A stretch of DNA of 64,000 bases. Origin: Minisyncoccota bacterium (GTDB taxonomy: Bacteria; Patescibacteriota; Minisyncoccia; Phycocordibacterales; JBAYGS01). The DNA lies in NCBI GenBank assembly GCA_041666545.1, contig JBAYGS010000003.1, positions 41,086 to 105,085 on the forward strand, written 5' to 3'. The notes beneath the pieces are model-generated. The model saw nothing but the letters and a program-made list of their open reading frames with translations. It ran no database searches and had not been told where the DNA came from. This document shows positions 4,851 to 60,930 of the stretch, piece by piece (positions within the stretch are counted from its first letter, which is position 1; every line of letters begins with the position of its first letter). The translations under genes and the position numbers were made by a program.

Positions 4851-6414
4851 TTTCTCAAGAGTTCTTTCCGCCCAGACAAATTATCTGGACGCGGCGATTA
4901 TCAAAGTTGAAACCGACTTATCAAAAGGCCTGAATTCTTTTTCGATTGTCGGCTTGCCGGACAAAGCGGTGGAAGAAGCCAGGGACCGCATTTCGGCCGC
5001 TATCAAGAACAGCGGTTTTCTTTCACCTAAACAGAAGAACCAGAGGACGGTCGTAGCGCTCGCACCGGCGGAACTCAAAAAGGAGGGTGCCAATTTTGAC
5101 CTGGCAATTGCTCTGGGTTATCTCTTAGCTACCAAACTAATTCGTTTTAACCCGGAAAAAAGACTGTTTCTTGGAGAATTATCCCTCGATGGCAAACTTC
5201 AACCGATTGCCGGCAGTTTAGCCCTAGTCTCGGAAGCCAAAAAACGCGGAATTGAGGAAGTTTATCTGCCAAAACAAAACGCCACGGAGGGTGCTTTAAT
5301 TTCTGACATAAAAATTTTTGGTGCCGACAATTTACTAGAAATTATTGCCCACCTAATCGAGAAAAGCCTCGACAAAACAGATGAGAGCCCGAGAATTTTG
5401 AAATTTGAGCTAGAAGTCACTCCACCAACCCAAGTTATTTATGAGGAGCCGGAGCGGGGTTTGGATTTATCAGATATCAAAGGTCAAGAAAGCGCCAAAA
5501 GAGGACTTTTGATTTCGGCCGCCGGTGGCCACAACTTGGCAATGTACGGCCCGCCCGGTACCGGCAAAACCATGCTGGCCCGAGCTTTTACCCATCTTTT
5601 GCCAAGCCTCTCTTTTGAAGAAGCTTTGGAGGTGACGGCCATCCATTCGGTTTCCGGAACACTTAAAGAAACCTTAGTGACTCGGCCACCACTTAGAAGT
5701 CCACATCACACCTCCTCGTATGTTGCGATTGTCGGCGGTGGTACAGTGCCGAAGCCAGGAGAAATTACTCTCGCCCACCGAGGAGTTTTGTTTTTGGACG
5801 AATTTCCGGAGTTTGAAAGACGAGTCATCGATGGTCTGCGTCAACCACTTGAAGACCGGGTGGTCAGTGTTTCCCGAATCAAAGGCACCGCCCAATTTCC
5901 GGCGCAGTTTATTTTAATCGCTGCAATGAATCCTTGTCCTTGCGGTAATTTTGGCATTTCTGGCAAACCCTGCATTTGTAGTGCCTCGAACATTGAAAGG
6001 TACAAGAGAAAAATTTCCGGACCAATTATCGATCGCATTGATTTGTGGGTTGAAGTCTCAAGCGTTGATCATGAATCACTAACCAGCCGAGAAAAAAGTG
6101 GCGCTGATACCAAGACCGTACGCAAGCAGATTGCTGAAGCCAGAGAAATTCAAGCTAAACGATTTAAGGATTCTAAGAGACCAATTAAAACCAATGGAGA
6201 AATGAGCGCCAAAGATGTAATTGAGCTGATCGACTTGGCCAAAGAAGTCAAAGATGAGTTTAACAAGTCGGCAAAAAAGTTGGACCTCTCGGCCCGGTCC
6301 TATCACCGAGTTTTAAAGTTGGCTCGCACCATTGCCGATTTAGAAAAAAGCGACGCGGTAGAGCGAGAACATATTTTCGAAGCTTTGCAGTACCGACCGA
6401 AACAGAGAATGTAA
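4816..6414 (+). CDS. comM: YifB/ComM family Mg-chelatase-like AAA+ ATPase
   Basis: 532 aa. N-terminal Lon-like ChlI domain (IVGLPDKAVEEARDRISAAIKNSGF). Walker A GPPGTGKTMLA, Walker B VLFLDEFPEF. C-terminal Mg-chelatase domain. Confidence 0.85.
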   Translation: MFLGFCYLITMSFSRVLSAQTNYLDAAIIKVETDLSKGLNSFSIVGLPDKAVEEARDRISAAIKNSGFLSPKQKNQRTVVALAPAELKKEGANFDLAIALGYLLATKLIRFNPEKRLFLGELSLDGKLQPIAGSLALVSEAKKRGIEEVYLPKQNATEGALISDIKIFGADNLLEIIAHLIEKSLDKTDESPRILKFELEVTPPTQVIYEEPERGLDLSDIKGQESAKRGLLISAAGGHNLAMYGPPGTGKTMLARAFTHLLPSLSFEEALEVTAIHSVSGTLKETLVTRPPLRSPHHTSSYVAIVGGGTVPKPGEITLAHRGVLFLDEFPEFERRVIDGLRQPLEDRVVSVSRIKGTAQFPAQFILIAAMNPCPCGNFGISGKPCICSASNIERYKRKISGPIIDRIDLWVEVSSVDHESLTSREKSGADTKTVRKQIAEAREIQAKRFKDSKRPIKTNGEMSAKDVIELIDLAKEVKDEFNKSAKKLDLSARSYHRVLKLARTIADLEKSDAVEREHIFEALQYRPKQRM

Positions 6415-6541
6415 TACCAATCTACCAATTTTATTCCAATCTACAAATATCCAGATAATTAAGAACTCACAAAAAACCGCTCACGCGGTTTTTGGATTTC
6501 TTTTTCTTCATACCATATACCTTATACTATATACCCAATAC

Positions 6542-7594
6542 CTATCTGAAAGGGTTTTGCGCGCCTCGGACTTCGAAGTGTAAGTGCGGTCCGGTTGAAC
6601 GACCGGTAGAACCGACATAGCCGATAATCTGGCCTTGCACGACATAAGAACCTTCGTAGGCAACATTGGTATCAAGGTGCCCATAAAGAGTTTGAGTACC
6701 GTTCGCGTGGGCAATAACGATATATTCGCCGTAGCCACCGTTCCAACCCGAGGAACGACTGATGATGACTTGGCCACTCGCCGCAGCCATGATTGGTGTA
6801 CCTCTTGAGGCACCGATATCAATCCCGTTATAGCCATGCAAGCCCTGGGTTTTTCTGCCACCAAGAACCGGCCAAATGTAATAGGTGCCGTAGTCTGGAC
6901 CACCTGCGCCACGGATTTTTGAGGTGCTACTGATTGTCGAAACACTGTAGCCGGCCATTTCACCATCGGGAATAATTATCGTATCACCAACTATCAAACT
7001 GGCACCTTGATCCAAACCGTTAAATTGTCTGATTTCACCCGCGTCGCCTTTGTACTTTTTGGCAATGCTCTGTAGAGTTTCACCTTTAACCACGGTGTGT
7101 TTGATACCGGAGATAGGTAGGATAATCAATTTTTGACCGACCTGAATCGGACCGGTAATGTCGTTGGCCCAAATAATCGTGTTGGCTGAAACACCAAACA
7201 TTTTAGCAATACCGGAAAGTGAATCGCCAGAATGAACAACGTAGACACTAATCTGACTTGATTTTGGATCTTCGATGTCCGCCAAGGTGCCGGCCGGGCC
7301 AGCTTCCGAAAGTAGGGCGGAGCTTGCCACGATTGTGATGTCACCACCCTTGGACAAGCTCGGGTTAGGGTTCCGGGTCGCCTGAAGCAGGGGCATATTT
7401 TGAGAATTAACTACCGACCCGTTAGTTCCGGCCTCAGCCTCATTATTGACCAAACTAGAAATAAAACTTAAAAGCCCCGCGTTTGCAGTTCGCGGAGCTA
7501 AAATCAAACTTAAAAATAGAACGGTAGCGGTAATAGTTGAGAAAACCAAAATCGGCTTCATTTTGGAAAAGCCTTGGTTGAGCCATATTTTCAT
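6542..7594 (-). CDS. LysM-domain M23 family metallopeptidase
   Basis: 350 aa. Signal/TM N-terminus, two LysM-like repeats (VHSGDSLSGIAKMFGVS; VVKGETLQSIAKKY), and a C-terminal M23 motif HGYNGIDIGA...GPHLHFEVR. Confidence 0.8.
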   Translation of the reverse strand: MKIWLNQGFSKMKPILVFSTITATVLFLSLILAPRTANAGLLSFISSLVNNEAEAGTNGSVVNSQNMPLLQATRNPNPSLSKGGDITIVASSALLSEAGPAGTLADIEDPKSSQISVYVVHSGDSLSGIAKMFGVSANTIIWANDITGPIQVGQKLIILPISGIKHTVVKGETLQSIAKKYKGDAGEIRQFNGLDQGASLIVGDTIIIPDGEMAGYSVSTISSTSKIRGAGGPDYGTYYIWPVLGGRKTQGLHGYNGIDIGASRGTPIMAAASGQVIISRSSGWNGGYGEYIVIAHANGTQTLYGHLDTNVAYEGSYVVQGQIIGYVGSTGRSTGPHLHFEVRGAQNPFR

Positions 7595-11833: not shown

Positions 11834-12811
11834 ATGAAAAACAATCGGCTCACTTTATGGGCAAGCATTGTTCTGGCACTTTTGATTGTCGGCGGAACTT
11901 GGTATTTCTCCGTTAGCAAAGACAGTCAACAAAATATCGTCTCTGATAGCAGTGGCTTGAAACAAGTGGCTAGTCTGGTGACAGAAAAAGATTCTGATCG
12001 TGATGGTTTGAAAGACTGGGAAGAGTCACTTTGGGGGACTGACCCAATGAATCCTGATACTGACGGCGATGGCACAAATGATAGTGACGAAGTCAAGGCC
12101 GGAAGAAATCCCTTGATTCAGGGACCAAACGATATCTTGCAAAAATCGGACGACATCACACAAGTCACTAACATCTCCGCAAACGAGGAACTTAGCCAGA
12201 CTGACAAATTCTCGCGCGAACTTTTTGCCCGTTATTTAGCTTTCAAGCAGGGCAGTGAGACTTTGGACCCAAAGAGTCAAGAAATCATTATCAATAGTAT
12301 GTTGGCGGAGAACCAGACGACTATTTCTGCTAAAGTTCATTCTTCAGCCGAGCTAAAGGTGAGCCAAGACAATTCGGCAGCTGCCTTAAAAAATTATGGC
12401 AACCTGCTTGGCGGGGCCATTATTTCGTCTAGTCCGAAAAACACCCGAAACGAGATTACGATTTTAAACGAAGCGGCCCAGTCCGGAGATGAGAACAAAA
12501 TCGGAGAGCTGGACCCAATAATCACCGGCTACCAAGATTTGATCAAAGCTGTTTTGACTATAGAAGTTCCAACAGGGGCCATCTCAATCCACATCGCTTT
12601 CATCAATAGTTTGGAAAAAGTCTTGGTTAATATCAAAACTTTGCGACAATTCTTTACTGACCCGATCGCCGCTTTGTCAGGAATCAATAATTACGAGGGC
12701 GCTGTCACCTCTTTGCAATCAAGCTTGACCGCTTTCAGGAGCTTTTTCCAGGTTAAGGGCATCGTTTTCGAACCGACCGCCCCAGGGAACGCGCTTGTGG
12801 GCAACTTTTAG
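11834..12811 (+). CDS. membrane-anchored protein with thrombospondin type-3-like Ca-binding repeats
   Basis: N-terminal TM helix. DSDRDGLKDWEE...DPMNPDTDGDGTNDSDE aspartate-rich repeats. First gene of the co-directional secretion-like locus. Confidence 0.4.
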   Translation: MKNNRLTLWASIVLALLIVGGTWYFSVSKDSQQNIVSDSSGLKQVASLVTEKDSDRDGLKDWEESLWGTDPMNPDTDGDGTNDSDEVKAGRNPLIQGPNDILQKSDDITQVTNISANEELSQTDKFSRELFARYLAFKQGSETLDPKSQEIIINSMLAENQTTISAKVHSSAELKVSQDNSAAALKNYGNLLGGAIISSSPKNTRNEITILNEAAQSGDENKIGELDPIITGYQDLIKAVLTIEVPTGAISIHIAFINSLEKVLVNIKTLRQFFTDPIAALSGINNYEGAVTSLQSSLTAFRSFFQVKGIVFEPTAPGNALVGNF

Positions 12812-14770: not shown

Positions 14771-16507
14771 ATGACCAGACTCAAAAAATATCTGCCATAT
14801 ATCCTGATTGCCGTAATCCTTTGCGGTTTGGCCTTTTCACCTTTACTGATAAACACCGACCATGCTTTGGCGGCTACAGCCGGAGGTTCGTCTGACACCC
14901 CGGGTGGAGAGGGTGGACTAATCAGCACAGTGGCAAGCGGAGTCTTCGATAAATTTATGTCGTCGGTCACTTACATCATCCTCTGGCTAGTCGCGAGGAT
15001 TACTTGGGTCTCCGGCGCCCTGCTCGACCTTTCTGTCTACTACAGTTTGAACTTGGCCACCCTCTTGTCGAGAACTAATATTGTCACTATCGGCTGGACA
15101 ATTTTCCGCGACCTGGCCAATGTTTTCTTCATTTTCATCCTCCTTTATTACGGTATTAGAATGATTATCAGCTTGCCGGTTGATAAAAATTTAATCACGC
15201 GATTGATTGTGGTCGCCCTGCTTATCAACTTCAGCCTCTTTATCAGTCGGGTAGTGATTGACGCTTCAAATGTGGTGGCCTTACAATTTTATAAAGCCAT
15301 TCGGCCAAACTATACTACTGATATATCTAACCCAGATTTTTATTTGGACAACATCTCGAGCCAATTTATGTATGGCTTGCAACTTTCGAGCACCTACGAC
15401 CCGGGCTCTGGCGATAAAAGTGTCCTTCGAGATACAGCCGGTATTGCTTCGAAGAAAATTATCGTGATGATAATGGGCATAATCTTGCTCTTGGTGGCGG
15501 CTTTCGTCTTCGCGGCCGCCGCGATTCTCTTTACCGTGCGAACGGTAGTTTTGATACTCCTGATGATTCTTTCACCAATCGCTTTTATCGGCTCTCTCAT
15601 ACCCAAAACCCAAAGTTATTCTGAAGAATGGTGGACCCAACTTTTCAATCAGTCATTTTTTGCTCCGGCCTACTTGGTTATGACCTATGTCGTTTTGAAG
15701 GCTCTCGGAGGTATCCAAACGATGATTCCTGTACCGGCCGGTGCCTCTTTTACCGACGCTTTCGGAGGAATGGCTTTAACCAGTGTCTCGATAATTATGA
15801 ATTATGTAATTCTGATTATCCTGATGCTTTCTTCTTTGATTATTGCCAAGAGAATGGGCGCTCACGGGGCCGATATGGCACAGAAGGCGGCCGGCAAGAT
15901 GTCGTTTGGGATGGCGGGAGCCTTCGGCAGAACAACCTTCGGCAAAGTCGCTCAATCTTTTGGCGGCAGTAAATTTGCGCAGGGTATGGCTGCCAAATCT
16001 GGGGCCGTTGGCGCCGCCAGCAGGTTAGCACTCAAAGCCACGAATGCTGTCGGCCAGTCTAGCTTTGACCTCAGGGCAACAACGATGGCCGGTGGGGGTA
16101 TAAGCAGTCTTGTTGGCGATGTTGGAAAACCAAGAACAGCAAAAGAACTAGCAAAGGAGGCCGAGGAGGATCGTAAAGTTAAAGCTCAGGCACAGGTCAA
16201 AGCTGATAACGCCAGATTGGGCCAGTCAATTTCCAATCTCGCAACAACCAATCCTGCTGCTATCCCTGGAATTGTCAGTAATTTAGACAAGGACCAGTTT
16301 AAGTCTATTGATCCAAAGATTTTTGTTAACAACTCAACCGCTGCTCAGAGCCTGGAACCAGAACAGCTTAAAAATCTACAGAACAACCCCGACATTACTC
16401 AGGCTGACCGTCGCGCAATTAGACAACACATTTTGAACCTTGGTGCTGTAGGCACACCTACCCACACCTTCATGGATAGTGGCCCTGGTAGTGTTTTGTG
16501 GGCATAA
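14771..16507 (+). CDS. VirB6/TrbL-like polytopic membrane protein
   Basis: 578 aa. Signal peptide, 6 or more TM helices, and a hydrophilic Gly/Ala-rich C-terminal tail. This architecture is typical of VirB6/TrbL/ConG-type T4SS channel proteins. Assignment is by architecture and context only. Confidence 0.45.
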   Translation: MTRLKKYLPYILIAVILCGLAFSPLLINTDHALAATAGGSSDTPGGEGGLISTVASGVFDKFMSSVTYIILWLVARITWVSGALLDLSVYYSLNLATLLSRTNIVTIGWTIFRDLANVFFIFILLYYGIRMIISLPVDKNLITRLIVVALLINFSLFISRVVIDASNVVALQFYKAIRPNYTTDISNPDFYLDNISSQFMYGLQLSSTYDPGSGDKSVLRDTAGIASKKIIVMIMGIILLLVAAFVFAAAAILFTVRTVVLILLMILSPIAFIGSLIPKTQSYSEEWWTQLFNQSFFAPAYLVMTYVVLKALGGIQTMIPVPAGASFTDAFGGMALTSVSIIMNYVILIILMLSSLIIAKRMGAHGADMAQKAAGKMSFGMAGAFGRTTFGKVAQSFGGSKFAQGMAAKSGAVGAASRLALKATNAVGQSSFDLRATTMAGGGISSLVGDVGKPRTAKELAKEAEEDRKVKAQAQVKADNARLGQSISNLATTNPAAIPGIVSNLDKDQFKSIDPKIFVNNSTAAQSLEPEQLKNLQNNPDITQADRRAIRQHILNLGAVGTPTHTFMDSGPGSVLWA

Positions 16508-16517
16508 AACCTAAAAC

Positions 16518-17276
16518 ATGAGATACGACTCAACAAAACTAAACGAAATTTATAAAACCCTGCCAAAAGATGTTCAGGAAGCGATGTTTTCGGTTGACTC
16601 CGCCAACGCTGTTCAAAAAATCGGCAAAGATAACGGCTTGATGATTGATAAAATGGGTACCCTTGGTCAAATGGTTGGTCTGGTAATGCTCGGTGTCATT
16701 AAATCCGTGAGTTTCGCCAAAGAAATCGAACACGAACTCGGAGTCAACTCAACAACCGCTCAAAAGATTGTCGCTCAAGTAAACGAGCAAATCTTTTTGC
16801 CAATCCGAGAATCGCTCCGGAAAATTCAAGAAAAAGAAATCAAGCCGGAATGGGACAGTGAATCAACCACCACCTTAAACCACGAAGATGTGTTGAAGGG
16901 GATTGAGGAACCCGGAGCAGTCACCGCCGATAAGCAAACCTTACTTAGCGAAAGCAAACCGGCGACCGCACCGGCGCCAGTCAACTTGCCGACCGGACCG
17001 ATGGGGAATGCACCGGCAGAAATCAACGCTTGGCCAAAATCACCTGAAATAACGAAAGCCCCACTCGAAACATCGGCAAAACTAAAAGTGGAAAGCATGG
17101 GAGTAAATATCCTTGAGGATAAAATGAGTAAAGTTGTCCATATCGCTAAAGAAACTAAAATCATTGAGCCAGAACCTTCAAAATTGCCGCCAGTTGCTCC
17201 GAAACCACCAACTCCACCCTCAATGCTGAAGAAGCAATATGGGACAGTTGATCCGTATAGAGAACCGGTAAGCTAG
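16518..17276 (+). CDS. hypothetical protein with a Pro-rich C-terminus
   Basis: Complete ORF inside the cluster. No recognisable motifs. Confidence 0.35.
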   Translation: MRYDSTKLNEIYKTLPKDVQEAMFSVDSANAVQKIGKDNGLMIDKMGTLGQMVGLVMLGVIKSVSFAKEIEHELGVNSTTAQKIVAQVNEQIFLPIRESLRKIQEKEIKPEWDSESTTTLNHEDVLKGIEEPGAVTADKQTLLSESKPATAPAPVNLPTGPMGNAPAEINAWPKSPEITKAPLETSAKLKVESMGVNILEDKMSKVVHIAKETKIIEPEPSKLPPVAPKPPTPPSMLKKQYGTVDPYREPVS

Positions 17277-17306
17277 TTTGTAGTGAGTAGTGGGTAGTGA
17301 GTAGTT
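17277..17306. repeat. family-A repeat (gtagtgagtagtgggtagtgagtag), left inverted copy flanking the four-helix-bundle gene
   Basis: Its exact reverse complement (aactactcactacccactactcactac) occurs at 17664-17690. Confidence 0.8.
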
Positions 17307-17309
17307 AAA

Positions 17310-17666
17310 ATGCAAGTCAAAACTTACAAAGATCTGATTGTTTGGCAAAAGTCTATGGAGCTGGCCACTTTGATTTATAATTTAACCAAAGAGTTCCCAA
17401 GAGACGAGGTCTATGGCTTGTCTTCACAAATCAAACGGGCCGTAATTGCAATCCCATCGAATATCGCCGAAGGACAACGCAGGAAGGGGACGAAAGAATT
17501 TATTCAATTTCTACACATCTCTTATGGGTCTGGAGCAGAACTGGAAACTCAGCTGGAATTAGCCAAAAGACTATCTTTCGGTAATTTGAATAGCTATACT
17601 GTCATAGAAAACCTTTTAAACGAAATCATGCGAATGTTAAATAAGTTAATTTACTCACTTCACTAA
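17310..17666 (+). CDS. four-helix-bundle protein (23S rRNA intervening-sequence protein family; Avd-like fold)
   Basis: 118 aa. DLIVWQKSMELATLIYNLTKEFPRDEVYGLSSQIKRAVIAIPSNIAEGQRRKGTKEFIQFLHISYGSGAELETQLELAKRL matches the TIGR02436 / PF05635 signature closely. Confidence 0.8.
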   Translation: MQVKTYKDLIVWQKSMELATLIYNLTKEFPRDEVYGLSSQIKRAVIAIPSNIAEGQRRKGTKEFIQFLHISYGSGAELETQLELAKRLSFGNLNSYTVIENLLNEIMRMLNKLIYSLH

Positions 17667-17698
17667 CTACTCACTACCCACTACTCACTACCAACTCC
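17652..17698. repeat. family-A repeat, right inverted copy (overlaps the stop of the four-helix-bundle gene)
   Basis: ctcacttcactaactactcactacccactactcactaccaactcc. Confidence 0.8.
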
Positions 17699-17699
17699 T

Positions 17700-18137
17700 A
17701 TGCGTTTCCAAACACCGCAATTCATAGAAATCGAGGACAAAATTTTTGGGCCTCTCACCCTGAAACAGTTCATCTACCTTTTGGGTGGCGCTGGTTTGGC
17801 TTTCATTTTTTACCGATTCCTTAATATTTTTGTGGCCGTACCCCTAATCATTGCCTCCTTGGGCTTTGGTATCGCTTTGGCTTTTTATAAGATCAACAAC
17901 AGACCATTTGCCTATATTATTGAAGTCGCGGCCAAATATTTCCTACGCAACAAACTTTACATTTGGAAGAAAAAAGATAAACCGGTAGTCCAGAAGACGG
18001 AGAGCAGTGAAGAAGACCTGGTTTCCGGGCTTTATGTCCCCAAACTTTCTGACAGCAAATTAAAAGATCTGGCCTGGAGCCTGGACATCAAAAATGTTGA
18101 GAACCCTGGGACTTCCGAGACCATGCGAGGAAAATAA
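17700..18137 (+). CDS. small membrane protein with two TM helices (possible VirB3-like component)
   Basis: 145 aa. Two hydrophobic helices near the N-terminus, then a charged tail. Positioned upstream of the VirB4-like ATPase as VirB3-like proteins often are. Context only. Confidence 0.3.
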   Translation: MRFQTPQFIEIEDKIFGPLTLKQFIYLLGGAGLAFIFYRFLNIFVAVPLIIASLGFGIALAFYKINNRPFAYIIEVAAKYFLRNKLYIWKKKDKPVVQKTESSEEDLVSGLYVPKLSDSKLKDLAWSLDIKNVENPGTSETMRGK

Positions 18138-35298: not shown

Positions 35299-35508
35299 GG
35301 GAAGTGAGTAGTTAGTAGTGGGTAGTGAGTAGTAAAAGAAAGACCACTATACTTTATACCTAATATTTACCCCAGGCTACTTGACTAGTCGATTGGTTTA
35401 AGATATTACAGGAGTAGACAGAATTACAGCTCGAGCTGTTTTCGACTGTTCTTAACAAATAATCCTAAAGCATTTTAAAATGCTCCGGTAAATCAACGAG
35501 GAACCTGT

Positions 35509-44391: not shown

Positions 44392-46842
44392 GTGAATCCT
44401 AAATCTACCCCAAAAAGACTGGTTTTACTCGACGCTCACGCGATACTGCACCGCGCTTACCATGCCTTGCCGGAATTTTCTTCAAGCAAAGGGGAACCGA
44501 CCGGGGCACTTTACGGGCTTTCAGCGATGCTCATCAAGATTATTGCTGATTTGAAGCCCGACTATTTGATTGCCGCTTACGATTTACCCAAGCCGACCTA
44601 TCGCCACGAAGCTTTCAAAGACTACAAAGCCGGCCGAGCCAAGGCCGACCCGGAACTGGTGTCGCAAATGAGGCGCTCGCGTGACGTTTTCACCGCTTTT
44701 AATATTCCAATTTATGACAAGGAAGGTTTTGAAGCGGATGACATAATCGGCACAATTGTCGAAAAGCTAACAGCTAAAAGCCAAAAGCTAAAAGCTGATG
44801 TAGACATAGTGATTGCCTCGGGCGACATGGACACCTTGCAGTTGGTTTCGGACGACAAGGTTCGAGTTTATACTCTGAAAAAAGGTATTAAAGACACGAT
44901 TATCTATAACGAAAAAGGTGTTATTGAACGGTTTGGTTTTGGGCCGGAACTTTTGCCGGATTACAAAGGTTTGCGCGGGGACCCGTCGGATAATATTCCG
45001 GGGATAAAAGGAATTGGTGAGAAGACCGCCACGATTTTGATTACCAATTTCGGTTCGGTTGAACAGATTTATAAACAAATTAAAAAAGACGAAAAGCCAT
45101 TACTTAAGGCAGGGATTACGCCCCGAATTGTTGAGCTTCTGAAAACCAACGAAGAAGAGGCGCAATTTTCCAAAATGCTTGGCACAATTCGTAGAGACGC
45201 GCCGATTGACTTCAGATTGCCGGAGCAGACCTGGAAGGAAAGTTTGGACGTTACAAAAACCGAGGAATTGTTCAGCGAACTGGAATTTCGAGCGCTCGGG
45301 ACACGCTTTAAGGAAACTTTAAATAAAGAAGCGCCAAATTCAAAAACCCAGGTTCCAAATAAATCTCAAATCATAAAGTCAGAAAATTCAGAAACTACAC
45401 ACTACTCACTACCCACTACTCACTTACCATCCGACTTCTTCGAAACCTCGCTTGCCCTCTGGGTCGTCAATTCTAACCTGACCAATCCGACCATGGAGGA
45501 TGTTTTGAATTTTGGCCGGACGGATGATTATGAAAAAGCCAAGAAGTTGATTTTTGAAACACTCAGGCAAAGAAAAAGCGAGAGAGTGTATGAGGAAATC
45601 GAGAAACCTTTGATTCCTGTCGTAAAAGCGATGGATGAGCGGGGAGTGAAGATTGATACGGAACTTCTCAAGAAACTTTCGGTTGAATATCATAAGAAAC
45701 TGGATGGCTTGGAAAAAGAAATTCACCAATTGGCCGGTGAGGAATTTAATGTGGCTTCCCCGAAACAATTGGGAGAAATTTTGTTCGTTAAGATGGGCTT
45801 GGCTGGCAAAAGGCAAAAAAAGACTGCAACTGGGGCGTTTTCTACCAAGGAAAGCGAACTTGAAAAATTGCGAGAGTCGCATCCGATTATAAGTTTGATT
45901 TTGGAGTATCGCGAATTTGCCAAATTGCTTTCCACATATATCGACACGATTCCGACTCTGGTGGACAAGAATAACCGGCTACACACGCATTTTTTGCAAG
46001 CCGGCGCCGCGACTGGGCGAATGGCCTCGGAAAATCCGGGTTTGCAAAATATTCCCAACAAAACTGAATTGGGCCGAGCTATTAGACAAGCTTTCGTTGC
46101 CGAAAAAGGTTTTAAACTTTTGGCGCTCGATTATTCGCAGATTGAACTCCGGATTGCCGCGTTTTTGTCGGGCGATAAAAAGTTGATTGAGATTTTTAAG
46201 AACGGCGAAGATGTTCATACAGCGGTGGCGGCGGAAGTTTTCGGTGTGCCGGGCGACAAAGTCCACAAAGATATGCGTCGCAAAGCCAAAGTGATTAATT
46301 TCGGCGTGATGTACGGGATGGGGGTGAATGCGCTTCGGACTAATCTGGGCGCCGGCACAACTCGTGAGGAAGCGCAGAAATTTTACAACGACTATTTTGA
46401 AAAGTTTTCAGGTTTGGCCAAATATTTAGATAAGGTGAAAGCTGAAACCGCGAGACAAGGTTACACCGAAACTTTTTTTGGCCGAAGGCGATATTTTGAA
46501 GGAATTAATTCTAAATTACCGTTTATTCGTGCCGCTGCTGAACGAATGGCGATTAACGCGCCGATTCAAGGCACCGAGGCCGACATTGTGAAGCTCGCGA
46601 TGATTAAAATTTGCGAATACATCAAATCGGAAAAACTTGAGGAACAAGTTTTTCCGATTCTCCAAGTCCATGACGAATTGGTTTATGAAGTTCGCGAGGA
46701 TTTAATTTCCAAAATCGCTCCAGCTATCAAAAAAATTATGGAATCAGTTATTCCACCCGAAAAAGTTGCCGGCATCGTCTGTGTCGCCGAAGCGTCCGAG
46801 GGGGAGAGGTGGGGGGAGATGAAGAAGGTAGAAGGTATATAG
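44392..46842 (+). CDS. polA: DNA polymerase I (5'-3' exonuclease + polymerase domains)
   Basis: 816 aa. N-terminal 5'-3' exo (LVLLDAHAILHRAYHALP; GIGEKTA). C-terminal pol motifs (LALDYSQIELRIAA; YGMGVNAL; QVHDELVYEV). The linker carries in-frame repeat-derived insertions. Confidence 0.93.
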   Translation: MNPKSTPKRLVLLDAHAILHRAYHALPEFSSSKGEPTGALYGLSAMLIKIIADLKPDYLIAAYDLPKPTYRHEAFKDYKAGRAKADPELVSQMRRSRDVFTAFNIPIYDKEGFEADDIIGTIVEKLTAKSQKLKADVDIVIASGDMDTLQLVSDDKVRVYTLKKGIKDTIIYNEKGVIERFGFGPELLPDYKGLRGDPSDNIPGIKGIGEKTATILITNFGSVEQIYKQIKKDEKPLLKAGITPRIVELLKTNEEEAQFSKMLGTIRRDAPIDFRLPEQTWKESLDVTKTEELFSELEFRALGTRFKETLNKEAPNSKTQVPNKSQIIKSENSETTHYSLPTTHLPSDFFETSLALWVVNSNLTNPTMEDVLNFGRTDDYEKAKKLIFETLRQRKSERVYEEIEKPLIPVVKAMDERGVKIDTELLKKLSVEYHKKLDGLEKEIHQLAGEEFNVASPKQLGEILFVKMGLAGKRQKKTATGAFSTKESELEKLRESHPIISLILEYREFAKLLSTYIDTIPTLVDKNNRLHTHFLQAGAATGRMASENPGLQNIPNKTELGRAIRQAFVAEKGFKLLALDYSQIELRIAAFLSGDKKLIEIFKNGEDVHTAVAAEVFGVPGDKVHKDMRRKAKVINFGVMYGMGVNALRTNLGAGTTREEAQKFYNDYFEKFSGLAKYLDKVKAETARQGYTETFFGRRRYFEGINSKLPFIRAAAERMAINAPIQGTEADIVKLAMIKICEYIKSEKLEEQVFPILQVHDELVYEVREDLISKIAPAIKKIMESVIPPEKVAGIVCVAEASEGERWGEMKKVEGI
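45395..45428. repeat. family-A repeat inside the polA coding sequence, in frame
   Basis: actacacactactcactacccactactcacttacc encodes TTHYSLPTTHLP in the exo-pol linker. Confidence 0.75.
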
Positions 46843-46865
46843 TATTAAGTATATGGTATAAAAAA

Positions 46866-48608: not shown

Positions 48609-48658
48609 CACTATTTTTTATACTATATACCTAATACTTTATACTATATACTTTACCT

Positions 48659-51146: not shown

Positions 51147-51578
51147 CTAAAGCGGCAAATCAAAGGCGAGAAAACCCGGGCCGCTAACTAAAAGTGAAAG
51201 CAAGATTACGATGAGTAGTAAGTAAACCCGCTTATTGTAAACAATTGCACCGGCCCATCTCGGAGTTTTGGATTTCAATGCTTGAATTAGCAAAATCAAA
51301 ATCAAAACTAAGGCAACTGGTTGGGTGAATAATCCGATAACCAAAAAAATTCCGCCCAAAACCTCTAAGAGGGCAATTATTCTGGCCAGAATTGATTTTG
51401 GGGCCGAGAGACTCCTGTAAAGCTGGTAACCGGAATAAATAATAATCAAACCGGCCACGATCCGAAGAAGCGTCGGTCCGGCGAGTCCGTAGGTCAATAA
51501 ATTTGGAAAAATACTTAACATGGCATTATGATAGCATAATGAATAATCAATAACCAAGAAACAATAACCAAGAAACAA
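51147..51578 (-). CDS. DoxX family membrane protein (likely start at internal Met, MLSIFPN)
   Basis: 4 TM helices. LLRIVAGLIIIYSGYQL...GGIFLVIGLFTQ is DoxX-like. Confidence 0.55.
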   Translation of the reverse strand: MFLGYCFLVIDYSLCYHNAMLSIFPNLLTYGLAGPTLLRIVAGLIIIYSGYQLYRSLSAPKSILARIIALLEVLGGIFLVIGLFTQPVALVLILILLIQALKSKTPRWAGAIVYNKRVYLLLIVILLSLLVSGPGFLAFDLPL

Positions 51579-51655
51579 TAACCAAGGTAAGTAGACGCTA
51601 CCGAGTATTGTTAATCGGAATTTGTTCGGTTATTGTTTCTTGGTCATTGGTGATT
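51546..51655. repeat. family-B palindromic unit (3x caataaccaagaaa, then ttattgtttcttggtcattg)
   Basis: Long imperfect inverted repeat in the divergent intergenic region between the DoxX and SpoU genes. Confidence 0.7.
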
Positions 51656-53159: not shown

Positions 53160-53212
53160 CGAAATAGTATTAGGTATATAGTATTAAGTATATAGTATGG
53201 GGAAAGAAAAAT

Positions 53213-54190
53213 CTAAGAGTAAAGAATTTGATGCTTGGGGCAGAAGTGAGCGCTGCGACCGCCGAGTTTGAGTTTGGTGATGATACCGGAGCATCTTTTC
53301 TTGCCACATTTTCCGCTAGTCTTTTGATAAGCCTGATGGTGATACTGGAAATTGCCCTTGGTGCCGAGTGGAGTGCGATAATCCGAAGTTGAATCACCGC
53401 CAAATTGGATGCCTTTTCTCAAAATCAGCTTCATTGAGTCGAACATCTTTTTTAGCTTTAGTGCAGGAATTTTAGAGACAATCGAGAGGGGATGGATGCC
53501 AGAGTCCCAAAGAATTTCGTCAGAATAAATATTGCCAATGCCGGATACAACTTTTGGGTCCATGAGAACCTGTTTGATTCTGCTTTTGGGCCAAGTGAAT
53601 AGACGGCCTTGGAATTTTTTGAAATCAAAACTTTTTTCGAGGGGTTCTGGGCCAATGTCGGCCAAATGCCCAGTTTCGTGAGCGGTTTTGGTTGGTAGGA
53701 GAGTGACTTTAGCGAACTTTCTCACATCGGAGAGAGCCAAATGTTTGCCATTTGTAAACGAAATAACTAAATGAACGAATCGGCTGTAGGGGTCTTTAAG
53801 CGCCTCGGGCGCAATCGCGATCCAAGGGGAAGCTGTTAGCTGTTGGCCTTTAGCTTTTAGTTTTTCGGATTTACTTGAAACTTTTAACTTGGAACTTGGA
53901 ACTCGCCTGTACGTTCCGTACAGGAGTTGGCCGGTCATTTTCATGTGAACCAGAATTGTCTGACCGTTTGAGAGGTTTATCAAAACATTTTTACCGCGCC
54001 TTTCGACATTTTTAATTTTCGCGCCAATTACGCTGACCCGAAATTTTCGGAAAAATTTCGGGTCCTTAATATTATCTTTTCCCTCATGAATTTTTCCGCC
54101 ATAATCGGTCCAAGCATCAGAAATAGTAAGGCCGGAAATCAGCCGGTCTAGCATTGTTGCGGTAGTGTGGACTTCGGGAAGTTCGGGCAT
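53213..54190 (-). CDS. mutM: formamidopyrimidine-DNA glycosylase (Fpg/MutM/Nei family)
   Basis: 325 aa. N-terminal MPELPEV (catalytic Pro2/Glu3), H2TH region, and a C-terminal zinc finger CGKKRCSGIITKLKLGGRSAHFCPKHQ. Carries an in-frame repeat-derived insertion. Confidence 0.85.
   Translation of the reverse strand: MPELPEVHTTATMLDRLISGLTISDAWTDYGGKIHEGKDNIKDPKFFRKFRVSVIGAKIKNVERRGKNVLINLSNGQTILVHMKMTGQLLYGTYRRVPSSKLKVSSKSEKLKAKGQQLTASPWIAIAPEALKDPYSRFVHLVISFTNGKHLALSDVRKFAKVTLLPTKTAHETGHLADIGPEPLEKSFDFKKFQGRLFTWPKSRIKQVLMDPKVVSGIGNIYSDEILWDSGIHPLSIVSKIPALKLKKMFDSMKLILRKGIQFGGDSTSDYRTPLGTKGNFQYHHQAYQKTSGKCGKKRCSGIITKLKLGGRSAHFCPKHQILYS
53848..53906. repeat. family-E-like repeat inside the fpg coding sequence (minus strand), in frame
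   Basis: The minus-strand sequence encodes VPSSKLKVSSKSEKLKAKGQ, inserted in Fpg. Confidence 0.7.
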
Positions 54191-54378
54191 GATTATAAGG
54201 GTATAGCTCCGACGGTTGTTTTACAAGGTCGGGACCCCGTCTAAAGCGTCGGGGCGTAAGGCGTCTAAGGAAGAATGACTTGACAAACAAATGAATTTTA
54301 ATATAGTCTGATTTCAGAAAGGGGTTGGTTTTATAAATCAATCTAAGTGCGGTTAACTCAAAGTGAAAGGATTGGAGT

Positions 54379-56757: not shown

Positions 56758-56918
56758 GAAGTTAAGTATATAGTATAAGGTATATAGTATAAAGTATCAG
56801 ATAATTCCACAGGAATGGATAAATTTGCATTTTTTGAAAGTCTCTGTTAGTATTGCCCTTGTTCGTTTTTCTGATGTCTTTAACTACAAACTACTCACTA
56901 CCAACTACTAACTAACTT

Positions 56919-60226: not shown

Positions 60227-60297
60227 AAGCACCAAGCACCGAATAAATTTTTCTTTTTTTGCAGATTGAGATTTATTTGGAACTTGTAATTTGAAAT

Positions 60298-60930
60298 TTG
60301 TTATTTTATCTTTCTTACATTATGTTAGATTATCTCGACCCGCTATTTTTAATCAAAGCTCTCGGACTTATCGGAGTTTTGCTCATAATTTTTGCCGAAT
60401 CGGGGTTATTTTTTGGGTTTTTCTTGCCTGGTGATTCGCTCCTATTCACTGCCGGACTTTTGGCCTCGCAGGGTTATCTGAATATTTATTACCTCTTACC
60501 CGGGGTATTTTTGATGGCAGTTCTGGGAGATACCTTCGGCTACACCTTTGGTCGGAAAATCGGCCCCAAAATTTTTACGCGCGAAGATTCGTTATTTTTT
60601 CACAAAAAACACGTTGAGCGCGCCAAAAACTTCTATGAAAAGTATGGTAACAAAACCATTGTTTTGGCGCGGTTTATTCCGATTGTCAGGACTTTTGCTC
60701 CGATTGTGGCTGGGGTTGGGCAGATGGATTATCGGAAATTTTTGACCTATAATATTTTTGGCGGTCTGGCTTGGACGGTTTTGCTTGCCGGAGGCGGTTA
60801 TTTTCTTGGCGAGATTGTGCCCGGGATTGAAAAGTATGTCACTTTGATTTTGGTTCTGATTATTTTAACCTCATTTTTGCCGGCTATCTCGGAAATCTGG
60901 CAGGTTTGGCGCCAAAAGCACAGCGCTTAG
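60298..60930 (+). CDS. DedA family membrane protein
   Basis: 210 aa. GFFLPGDSLLFTAGLLA and ARFIPIVRTFAPIVAGVGQM are DedA/VTT motifs. Confidence 0.8.
   Translation: MLFYLSYIMLDYLDPLFLIKALGLIGVLLIIFAESGLFFGFFLPGDSLLFTAGLLASQGYLNIYYLLPGVFLMAVLGDTFGYTFGRKIGPKIFTREDSLFFHKKHVERAKNFYEKYGNKTIVLARFIPIVRTFAPIVAGVGQMDYRKFLTYNIFGGLAWTVLLAGGGYFLGEIVPGIEKYVTLILVLIILTSFLPAISEIWQVWRQKHSA

Follow-up and report, generated by a model that had tools for sequence, protein, structure and literature searches.

A heptanucleotide-repeat tract inside the fpg/mutM gene of a Paceibacterota genome, probably a tolerated passenger of slippage and of copying between arrays

Heptanucleotide repeats arranged head to tail are known from several groups of bacteria. 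The TAACTGA repeats of marine Beggiatoaceae, cyanobacteria and Bacteroidetes occur in sets of two to six units, mostly a few nucleotides (nt) upstream of start codons without an evident Shine-Dalgarno sequence, with a minority inside open reading frames (ORFs), mainly at the ends of the encoded proteins; some sets overlap stop codons, the stops contained in the unit restrict its position and orientation within genes, and the repeats are suspected of being mobile by a mechanism that was not found (MacGregor 2015, PMC4679880). Heptamers are over-represented in bacteria more generally, with arrays in Calothrix, Nostoc and Xanthomonas for which polymerase slippage has been suggested (PMC4692102), and the heptamers near start codons in Nostoc have been linked to regulation (bioRxiv 10.1101/2022.06.06.494920). 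Repeated DNA of another kind, the Rickettsia palindromic elements, is inserted in frame into conserved genes (PMC10969869). Here, we describe a 64,000-nt stretch of a Minisyncoccota genome (assembly GCA_041666545.1, contig JBAYGS010000003.1, positions 41,086 to 105,085; hereafter the window), which is rich in heptamer arrays and in which two such arrays lie within the fpg/mutM gene, in an additional segment of the encoded Fpg protein. We consider this segment, with a probability of about 0.65, to be a tolerated passenger of heptanucleotide direct repeats, generated by slippage and by copying between arrays.

The tract in question (53831 to 53903, minus strand), as delimited by Tandem Repeats Finder (TRF) and by a codon-level reading, encodes about 25 residues of Fpg (~96-120, (R)VPSSKLKVSSKSEKLKAKGQQLTA) in approximately ten degenerate 7-nt units that keep a single register. 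On the coding strand, these units read AGTTCCA AGTTCCA AGTTAAA AGTTTCA AGTAAAT CCGAAAA ACTAAAA GCTAAAG GCCAACA GCTAACA GCT. TRF separates them into two period-7 arrays: an AGTTCCA-type array of 4.4 copies (53873 to 53903, minus strand; AGTTCCA AGTTCCA AGTTAAA AGTTTCA AGT) and an AAAAGCT-type array (53831 to 53867, minus strand; C GAAAAACT AAAAGCT AAAGGCC AACAGCT AACAGCT), for which the TRF row runs from 53831 to 53865 with 5 copies. For three-unit probes of either AGTTCCA or AAAAGCT, shuffled sequences lead one to expect no chance matches in the window.

The original prediction of a repeat-derived, in-frame insertion in fpg is thus borne out, in that two adjacent period-7 arrays lie inside an insertion of an intact ORF. 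An insertion is indeed present at the span proposed for it, 53848-53906, and the tract continues for a further 17 nt, to 53831, through ...QQLTA, beyond the peptide that was quoted (VPSSKLKVSSKSEKLKAKGQ, residues 97-116). The DNA quoted for it, ctaaaagctaaaagg, contains one 'a' too many, the actual sequence being ctaaaagctaaaggcc. Furthermore, the word GGAACTTGGAACTT, which had been assigned to a repeat family ('family E'), is barely dispersed: beyond fpg it has two matches, each with two mismatches, at 60279 (within an array at 60275-60306) and at 11894. The unit said to be shared with polA holds at the level of the heptamer AAAAGCT, which is common to both genes, whereas the exact 9-mer GCTAAAAGC occurs in polA only. 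These corrections to words and coordinates leave the core observation unaffected.

The fpg/mutM ORF (53213 to 54190, minus strand) encodes 325 amino acids (aa) and is intact and uninterrupted in both ORF calling and Pfam analysis; a frameshift that would make it a pseudogene was looked for, and neither a frameshift nor a stop was found. The protein is recorded at NCBI as MFA6536449.1, from a metagenome-assembled genome of Candidatus Paceibacterota, and three contigs encode a protein identical to it. Its Pfam matches are to Fapy_DNA_glyco (81.9 bits, gathering cut-off 25.5), the H2TH domain (74.7 bits, cut-off 34.7) and the zinc finger zf-FPG (zf-FPG_IleRS), the last being a borderline pass at 21.3 bits, exactly the cut-off of 21.3. 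The zinc finger (53213-53310) reads C295-x4-C300 ... C317-x2-H320, that is C-C-C-H. In a 32-sequence alignment (A1), C295, C317 and H320 do not vary and C300 hardly does; equally invariant are P2, E3, L4, P5 and E6 of the N-terminal MPELPEV, the Met of HMKMTG, and R157 and F159 of the DVRKF block. As read from the sequence, the catalytic and DNA-binding motifs of the window Fpg are all intact.

An AlphaFold2 model built with the 32-sequence alignment as input has a predicted local distance difference test (pLDDT) score of 87 and a predicted template modelling (pTM) score of 0.85, and its best Foldseek match is 1r2y_A (E = 2.5e-27, target TM-score 0.89), one of the MutM-DNA complexes. The N-terminal Pro2-Glu3, both domains, the zinc finger and the overall predicted fold place the protein in the Fpg/MutM family. 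It resembles the canonical enzymes of G. stearothermophilus (1R2Y) and L. lactis (1TDZ/1PM5) in fold (target TM-score 0.88-0.89), in the PELPEV N-terminus and H2TH domain, and in having Met, Arg and Phe at the aligned wedge positions. It differs from them in the C-C-C-H composition of its zinc finger in the alignment, four cysteines being the usual arrangement, and in possessing ~38 more residues, which come after the strand downstream of the Met wedge and before the next block of conservation. Residues ~93-130 have no counterpart in L. lactis Fpg, and the alignment resumes at ~131. The ~38 extra residues are made up of a W-containing return segment, conserved in the lineage, and of the heptamer-derived tract.

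In the AlphaFold2 model, a strand at residues 87-96 is followed by a low-confidence stretch (~99-120), a second strand (123-127) and a short helix (129-132). The pLDDT drops below 50 at residues 105-117, and the ten-residue blocks starting at 101 and 111 average 50 and 47, respectively. The second strand and the helix belong to the conserved return segment WIAIAPEALKD (W123-D133; 53792 to 53824, minus strand), its Trp, W123, being almost invariant among Paceibacteria. Known structures of Fpg have their Met, Arg and Phe wedge residues on the DNA side; given this and the order of the strands, the tract would be located where the ten-residue strand starting after the Met85 wedge comes to its far end, and is thus probably remote from the DNA face. 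The expectation that the insertion would occupy a loop agrees with both the alignment and the model, in which it forms a variable, low-confidence stretch between two strands.

Seven not being a multiple of three, translation passes through all the frames of a unit one after another, and a perfect array of AAAAGCT or CTAAACC would yield an in-frame TAA at every third junction. This TAA has been replaced, exactly at that position, in all five genic arrays of such units: CAA takes its place in polA and fpg of the window and in its relative L003, CAT in L004 and TCC in L005 (for these relatives, see below). The AAAAGCT module has a single open frame, which is why fpg and polA share it, fpg EKLKAKGQQLTA and polA EKLTAKSQKLKA being read in the same frame. 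That the insertions are tolerated when in frame, as had been proposed, can be seen directly in the open frame and the five mutated stops. Genic arrays also show a preference for consensus units that are stop-free on the coding strand (23 of 35, against 35 of 96 intergenic orientations; odds ratio 3.3, p = 0.005, with crude gene calls).

The closest homologs of the window Fpg are Parcubacteria/Paceibacteria proteins of 300-374 aa. Their alignment has one main variable stretch, from LLYGxY to W123, where 0 to ~45 residues are found, the rest being conserved. We examined this loop in the fpg DNA of the five closest relatives (L002-L006, 74-80% identical) and of 80 more Paceibacteria loci, giving 86 loci with the window. 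The loop DNA is heptameric in all five of the closest relatives, but the units differ: AGTTCCA only in L002, AAATGGA and then CTAAACC in L003 and L004, CTAAACC in L005, and ACTTACA in L006. Sorted by inter-anchor loop length, a period-7 array is present in none of nine loci with loops of up to 35 aa, in one of 51 with 36-50 aa, in six of 18 with 51-60 aa, and in five of eight with at least 61 aa. The loop accounts for 15% of the gene yet holds 15 of the 21 intragenic arrays in the 86 fpg genes (p = 1.4e-8). Arrays of at least 26 nt number 3.79 per 10 kb in the clade of the window versus 0.34 in the other loci, a difference of about 11-fold, and 55 of the 80 other loci have no array.

Among the proteins and loci examined, the inter-anchor distance varies from 25 to 88 aa. 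P0008, P0009 and L088 are close relatives without the tract, and relatives with the shortest loops are A-rich at this position (AAAAACAAAAAACC in L088). A metagenome scan with the degenerate probe HMKMTGQLLYGTY retrieved three contigs, one of which has a minimal loop while another ends inside the array; no variant allele was present in the 90% protein cluster of the window Fpg. The idea that loop lengths move in steps of 7 aa (three heptamers) was not supported, the Rayleigh statistic over 198 loops being no better at period 7 than at 4, 8 or 9. The coding strand has, immediately 5' of the array, a hairpin of 8 perfectly paired bp and a loop of 3 nt (CCTGTACG GAA CGTACAGG; 53906-53924), in which L003 and L005 carry apparently compensatory changes. 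It was rejected as the cause of the hot spot: the pairing potential is 5.75 of 8 in loci with arrays versus 4.76 of 8 in those without (p = 0.08), similar pairing is found in array-less loci, and the hairpin mostly follows from the codons for L-Y-G-T-Y-K/R.

Length variation is also seen elsewhere in the protein. A second variable loop, located before the TILVHMKMTG strand (A1 columns 128-142), has 4-15 extra K/D/G/S-rich residues in one subgroup (P0018, P0019, P0048, P0049). In L063, an AATTTTC array of 4.6 copies occurs at about residue 150, outside the main hot spot, and P0010 (374 aa) has a 53-residue extension before MPELPEV. Since Pro2 of Fpg must be the N-terminal nucleophile, the start of P0010 is probably miscalled.

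The fpg tract is one of many arrays in the window. When TRF was run on the window and on dinucleotide-preserving shuffles, 23 period-7 rows were obtained versus 1.25 in the shuffles, and ten period-14 rows versus 0.35, while periods 8-11 were far less enriched, with anything from practically no excess to about 4-fold. By this comparison of the window with its shuffles, it is period 7 specifically that is over-represented genome-wide. The period-7 and period-14 rows merge into 24 arrays. In heptamer-rich loci, array length has a sharp mode at ~31-35 nt that is missing from the heptamer-poor relatives, and 76 canonical units, and hence many unit families, were counted over the loci examined. The head-to-tail units (4.4 and 5.0 copies in fpg), the period-7 excess and the placement of arrays at start codons characterise them as heptanucleotide direct repeats. 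A TAACTGA dimer is absent from the window at up to two mismatches; with this and the many unit families, membership of the TAACTGA family was ruled out.

Intragenic arrays are found in polA (two), fpg (two), KsgA, RuvA and other genes, those in KsgA and RuvA being short, so that the phenomenon does extend to other conserved enzymes, as was originally suggested. The first polA array (44760 to 44796, plus strand) consists of five AAAAGCT copies and encodes EKLTAKSQKLKA; the second (45394 to 45424, plus strand), with 4.4 copies of ACTACNC, forms part of an inter-domain linker. The two are the only places at which polA is gapped or divergent with respect to an 84%-identical ortholog. The second contains a 24-mer, ACTACTCACTACCCACTACTCACT, that is found exactly at 17282 (minus strand), 17666 (plus) and 45401 (plus, inside polA), with two more copies at one or two mismatches; similarly, GGTATATAGTATWAAGTAT marks five intergenic sites in the window.

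How the two fpg arrays were acquired can be approached through the sister locus. In a neighbour-joining tree of the alignment without the loop, the window groups with P0001/L002. The AGTTCCA array is nearly base-for-base common to the window and L002/P0001; as both have it, it predates their split. The window loop is 39 nt longer than that of L002, and the extra piece coincides with the 37-mer at 53831-53867, which is 86.5% identical over 37 nt to the first polA array at 44760-44796 (blastn, E = 2.8e-4). GAAAA microhomology is visible at one junction of this 39-nt difference, with no clear target duplication. The polA array is likely the donor or a sister of the AAAAGCT array of fpg. Taken by itself, this similarity argues moderately for copying, since any two arrays built of one unit resemble each other. 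In L003, an exact 21-mer, GAAATCTCAAAATGGAAAATT, which includes an irregular unit, is present both in the fpg loop (5486-5506) and in the polA linker (12182-12202, opposite strand), and ~50 of 66 positions around it also match. On this sequence evidence, copying between loci does happen in a relative of the window.

Orthologous arrays, on the other hand, retain their place, length and register while all of their units change together. At the first polA site, the units are of AAAAGCT type in the window and of ATAAACT type in L003, in the same register, and in the polA linker ACTACNC-type units correspond to ACTATAA-type units in L003. Because orthologous units change together and because the 21-mer is shared within L003, in-place concerted turnover and copying both operate; of the two mechanisms that had been put forward, slippage or insertion, both therefore seem to act.

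In the explanation that we favour, the AGTTCCA array would already have been present in the ancestor shared with the closest relative, and the AAAAGCT array of 37-39 nt would have been gained later, in the window lineage. The latter would have had its source in an array elsewhere in this genome, that of polA being the likeliest, and would have been copied by ectopic gene conversion or microhomology-mediated template switching, after which replication slippage and concerted turnover would reshape the units. Selection would act as a filter only, such that net lengths that are a multiple of three and stop-free frames survive and TAA-giving units are substituted. The segment itself would be without required function, of which we see no sign: its length and sequence are not conserved, near relatives do without the tract, disorder is predicted, and the modules also occur in spacers and unrelated proteins.

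A number of points weigh against this explanation. The lineage counts given above are not phylogenetically independent, shared ancestry being uncorrected. The likeness of the fpg and polA arrays in the window is mostly that of a shared unit, and selection imposes the T>C change that they have in common; it is in L003/L004 alone, and not in the window, that copying is firmly established, and no donor of the AGTTCCA array came to light. Nor would simple slippage be expected to give so narrow a size mode (31-35 nt). Finally, a comparison of the fpg loop arrays of L003 (5460-5530) and L004 (860-950) gave 0.90-0.93 identity at the DNA level, against 0.75 for the gene overall, even though across the family the loop is under no constraint as protein. 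Such high identity is odd for a neutral passenger and could reflect constraint on the DNA or RNA, or repeated conversion, although the sample is small.

An alternative is a purely local origin, in which both arrays arose by in-place slippage from A-rich proto-repeats and the likeness to polA reflects a mutational preference of this genome for certain units. The single 7-nt register, with its gradient of units (AGTTCCA > AGTTAAA > ACTAAAA > GCTAAAG > GCTAACA), the concerted evolution of orthologous arrays in place and the A-rich sequence of the shortest loops (AAAAACAAAAAACC, L088) all fit with it, and a general bias of bacteria towards slippage of heptamers has been put forward (PMC4692102). 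We nonetheless regard it as unlikely, since neither the 21-mer shared by fpg and polA in L003, with its non-consensus unit, nor the 24-mer at three window loci can be convergent. Moreover, the segment missing from the sister L002 coincides with the polA-like 37-mer, and a size mode of 31-35 nt is unlike that of an open-ended microsatellite.

The position of many arrays relative to genes raises a wider proposal. Arrays end 3-6 nt before the ATG, as placed by ORF calling, at 17310, 17700, 35298 (minus strand), 48659, 53159 (minus), 56757 (minus) and 56919, and six of these seven are G-free on the sense strand (17652-17696, 35303-35333, 48617-48655, 53164-53198, 56764-56797 and 56881-56914). Being G-free, they exclude a Shine-Dalgarno sequence from the 30-45 nt that precede these genes, and it is possible that they are leader, promoter (TATACT-like) or regulator sites. 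The array closest to our subject (53164 to 53198, minus strand), with heptamer/14-mer units ATACTAT ATACTTA ..., lies between the fpg stop and the next gene, ending 4 nt before the ATG of the latter (53159); it is G-free on the sense strand, and its position is conserved in L004 and L006 and vacant in L005. It is conceivable that the arrays arise from active copying or homogenisation, by which genome-specific modules of ~32 nt are written at gene starts, with by-products in permissive protein loops; that the G-free arrays 3-6 nt before starts are functional, Shine-Dalgarno-independent leaders or regulator-binding sites; and that constraint on, or conversion from, those copies explains the homogeneous and conserved intragenic arrays. 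We hold this proposal to be doubtful.

Arrays also occur at the other end of genes. Two of them, of the GGTATATAGTAT family, overlap stop codons, at 46823-46860 (3' end of polA) and 6510-6542 (3' end of an M23/LysM peptidase gene). The polA gene terminates within its array (TAG at 46840-46842), and its C-terminus is three residues longer than that of the L003 ortholog. Arrays at gene 3' ends are C-free, that is, in the opposite orientation to those at start codons.

That the loop itself has been selected, as a flexible Lys/Ser-rich segment for non-specific DNA contacts or a partner protein, with the arrays as raw material, is improbable. It would be in keeping with the K/S/Q/N-rich loops of many relatives, the well-kept array DNA of L003 and L004 and the conservation across the lineage of the adjoining W-containing return strand. 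However, neither length (25-88 aa) nor sequence is conserved among relatives, P0008, P0009 and L088 do without the tract, the segment is predicted to be disordered and, judging by strand order, lies away from the DNA face, and the modules are found in spacers and unrelated proteins as well.

Insertion of a miniature mobile element, comparable to a Rickettsia palindromic element or a miniature inverted-repeat transposable element, in which the 7-nt periodicity would be fortuitous, is very improbable. In its favour, discrete modules of 31-35 nt recur with an identical internal order at several loci, the ACTAC 24-mer being present at five (three of them exact) and the 37-nt AAAAGCT module at two, and in-frame insertion into unrelated housekeeping genes is what Rickettsia palindromic elements do (PMC10969869). 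A palindromic or terminal-inverted-repeat structure was nevertheless rejected: there are neither terminal inverted repeats nor an internal palindrome, an 11-nt pair of 82% complementarity being all that flanks the tract. No clear target-site duplication was seen, no association with a transposase was found, and orthologous sites change their units in concert. A true hairpin mini-element does enter these arrays, which counts in favour of this reading. Upstream of fpg, at 54209 to 54252 (no strand assigned), a 44-nt hairpin element, CCGACG...CGTCGG, is present in the only copy with exact termini in the window, at a site where L003 and L004 have an unbroken CTATACG/CTTTACG heptamer array. Related hairpins of ~44 nt interrupt arrays upstream of fpg in L006 and between fpg and the next gene in L002 and L003, which suggests that the hairpin is a small mobile or recombining element that targets arrays.

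Finally, a contingency locus, in which the gain or loss of one unit would shift the frame and make fpg a phase-variable mutator switch, is scarcely credible, for although the unit length is not a multiple of three, the arrays change over evolutionary time and loss of fpg is known to give a mutator phenotype, the tract is not a long uninterrupted one (the longest perfect run, AGTTCCAAGTTCCAAGTT, has 2.6 units, and TRF matches are 78-83%), three contigs encode an identical protein with no frameshifted allele in its 90% cluster, and similar arrays reside in essential genes such as polA.

Other features of the window deserve mention. Exact inverted copies of ACTACTCACTACCCACTACTCACT, at 17282-17305 (minus strand) and 17666-17689 (plus), flank an ORF (17310-17666) for a 118-aa protein of the 23S_rRNA_IVP/bAvd-like four-helix-bundle family (Pfam E = 6e-39). 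A link between the arrays and genes of this kind was considered and dropped, this being the single such gene among all the DNA examined. By analogy with rRNA intervening sequences, the transcript around this ORF could form a long-range stem. An Rfam scan of the window returned tRNAs only and no rRNA. The 118-aa gene is adjoined by TrbL/VirB6-like and PrgI-like genes (14771-18137), which are type IV secretion or conjugation-like components, and the TrbL-like ORF contains an array of AATTATG units (15793-15819). A perfect array of the AATAACC unit (CAATAACCAAGAAA, 2.8 copies) lies at 51542-51586, where a DoxX gene has its 5' end; from this unit the Fpg loop is also built at L008, a Taylorbacteria locus. 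Families of units thus reappear in different genomes at sites that are not orthologous.

These findings account for a class of odd insertions in conserved enzymes of the candidate phyla radiation (CPR) and Paceibacteria, which otherwise resemble alignment noise or pseudogene damage, and they show how a 7-nt repeat can lengthen proteins in streamlined genomes under a simple filter of frame and stops. They also mark a permissive site in Fpg, bounded by the strand next to the Met wedge on one side and by the conserved return strand on the other, that tolerates 0-45 extra residues. The unexplained phenomenon of heptamer repeats, hitherto reported from cyanobacteria, Beggiatoaceae and Bacteroidetes, is extended to a very distant lineage; our literature searches returned no paper pairing heptamer repeats with Parcubacteria, Patescibacteria or 'candidate phyla radiation'. 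To the question of mechanism they add two clues, the concerted change of orthologous arrays and the sharing of sequence between arrays of different genes. A broader significance would follow only from proof that the arrays are actively copied or that they serve as leaders.

The closest parallel remains that of the TAACTGA repeats: the arrays of the window are likewise made of head-to-tail 7-nt units, abundant in the genome, often placed just upstream of starts, and sometimes over stops or within ORFs. They differ in comprising many unit families rather than one, in belonging to a host of the Paceibacterota (CPR), in having intragenic copies in the interior of conserved housekeeping enzymes (Fpg, PolA), and in the concerted change of orthologous arrays and the sharing of sequence between loci that are documented here. 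With the short tandemly repeated repetitive (STRR) sequences of cyanobacteria, including Nostoc, and the GGGAATC repeats of Xanthomonas, they have in common the period-7 excess, intergenic arrays near promoters or starts, the slippage hypothesis, and wide variation in length and sequence between close relatives. Those repeats, however, have been reported from intergenic DNA and are for the most part rich in G or of defined units, whereas the window arrays have little G on the sense strand and make up protein loops as well. Like Rickettsia palindromic elements, the arrays are short repeated DNA placed in frame in unrelated conserved genes, at sites compatible with the fold, and add a peptide to the protein; the former are palindromic mobile families of ~150 bp, while the inserts of the window are non-palindromic heptamer arrays of 31-39 nt. 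Low-complexity insertions derived from slippage are known in the surface loops of proteins, and the Fpg segment is similar to them in being hydrophilic, disordered, variable in length, situated in a permissive loop and encoded by tandem-repeat DNA. It departs from them in its 7-nt unit, which is not a multiple of three, so that a stop in any frame must mutate, and in units that are common to several genes of one genome. The present case departs from what is known in four respects: it comes from another lineage of hosts, draws on many families of units, has arrays deep within housekeeping enzymes, and offers evidence of concerted change as well as of copying from gene to gene.

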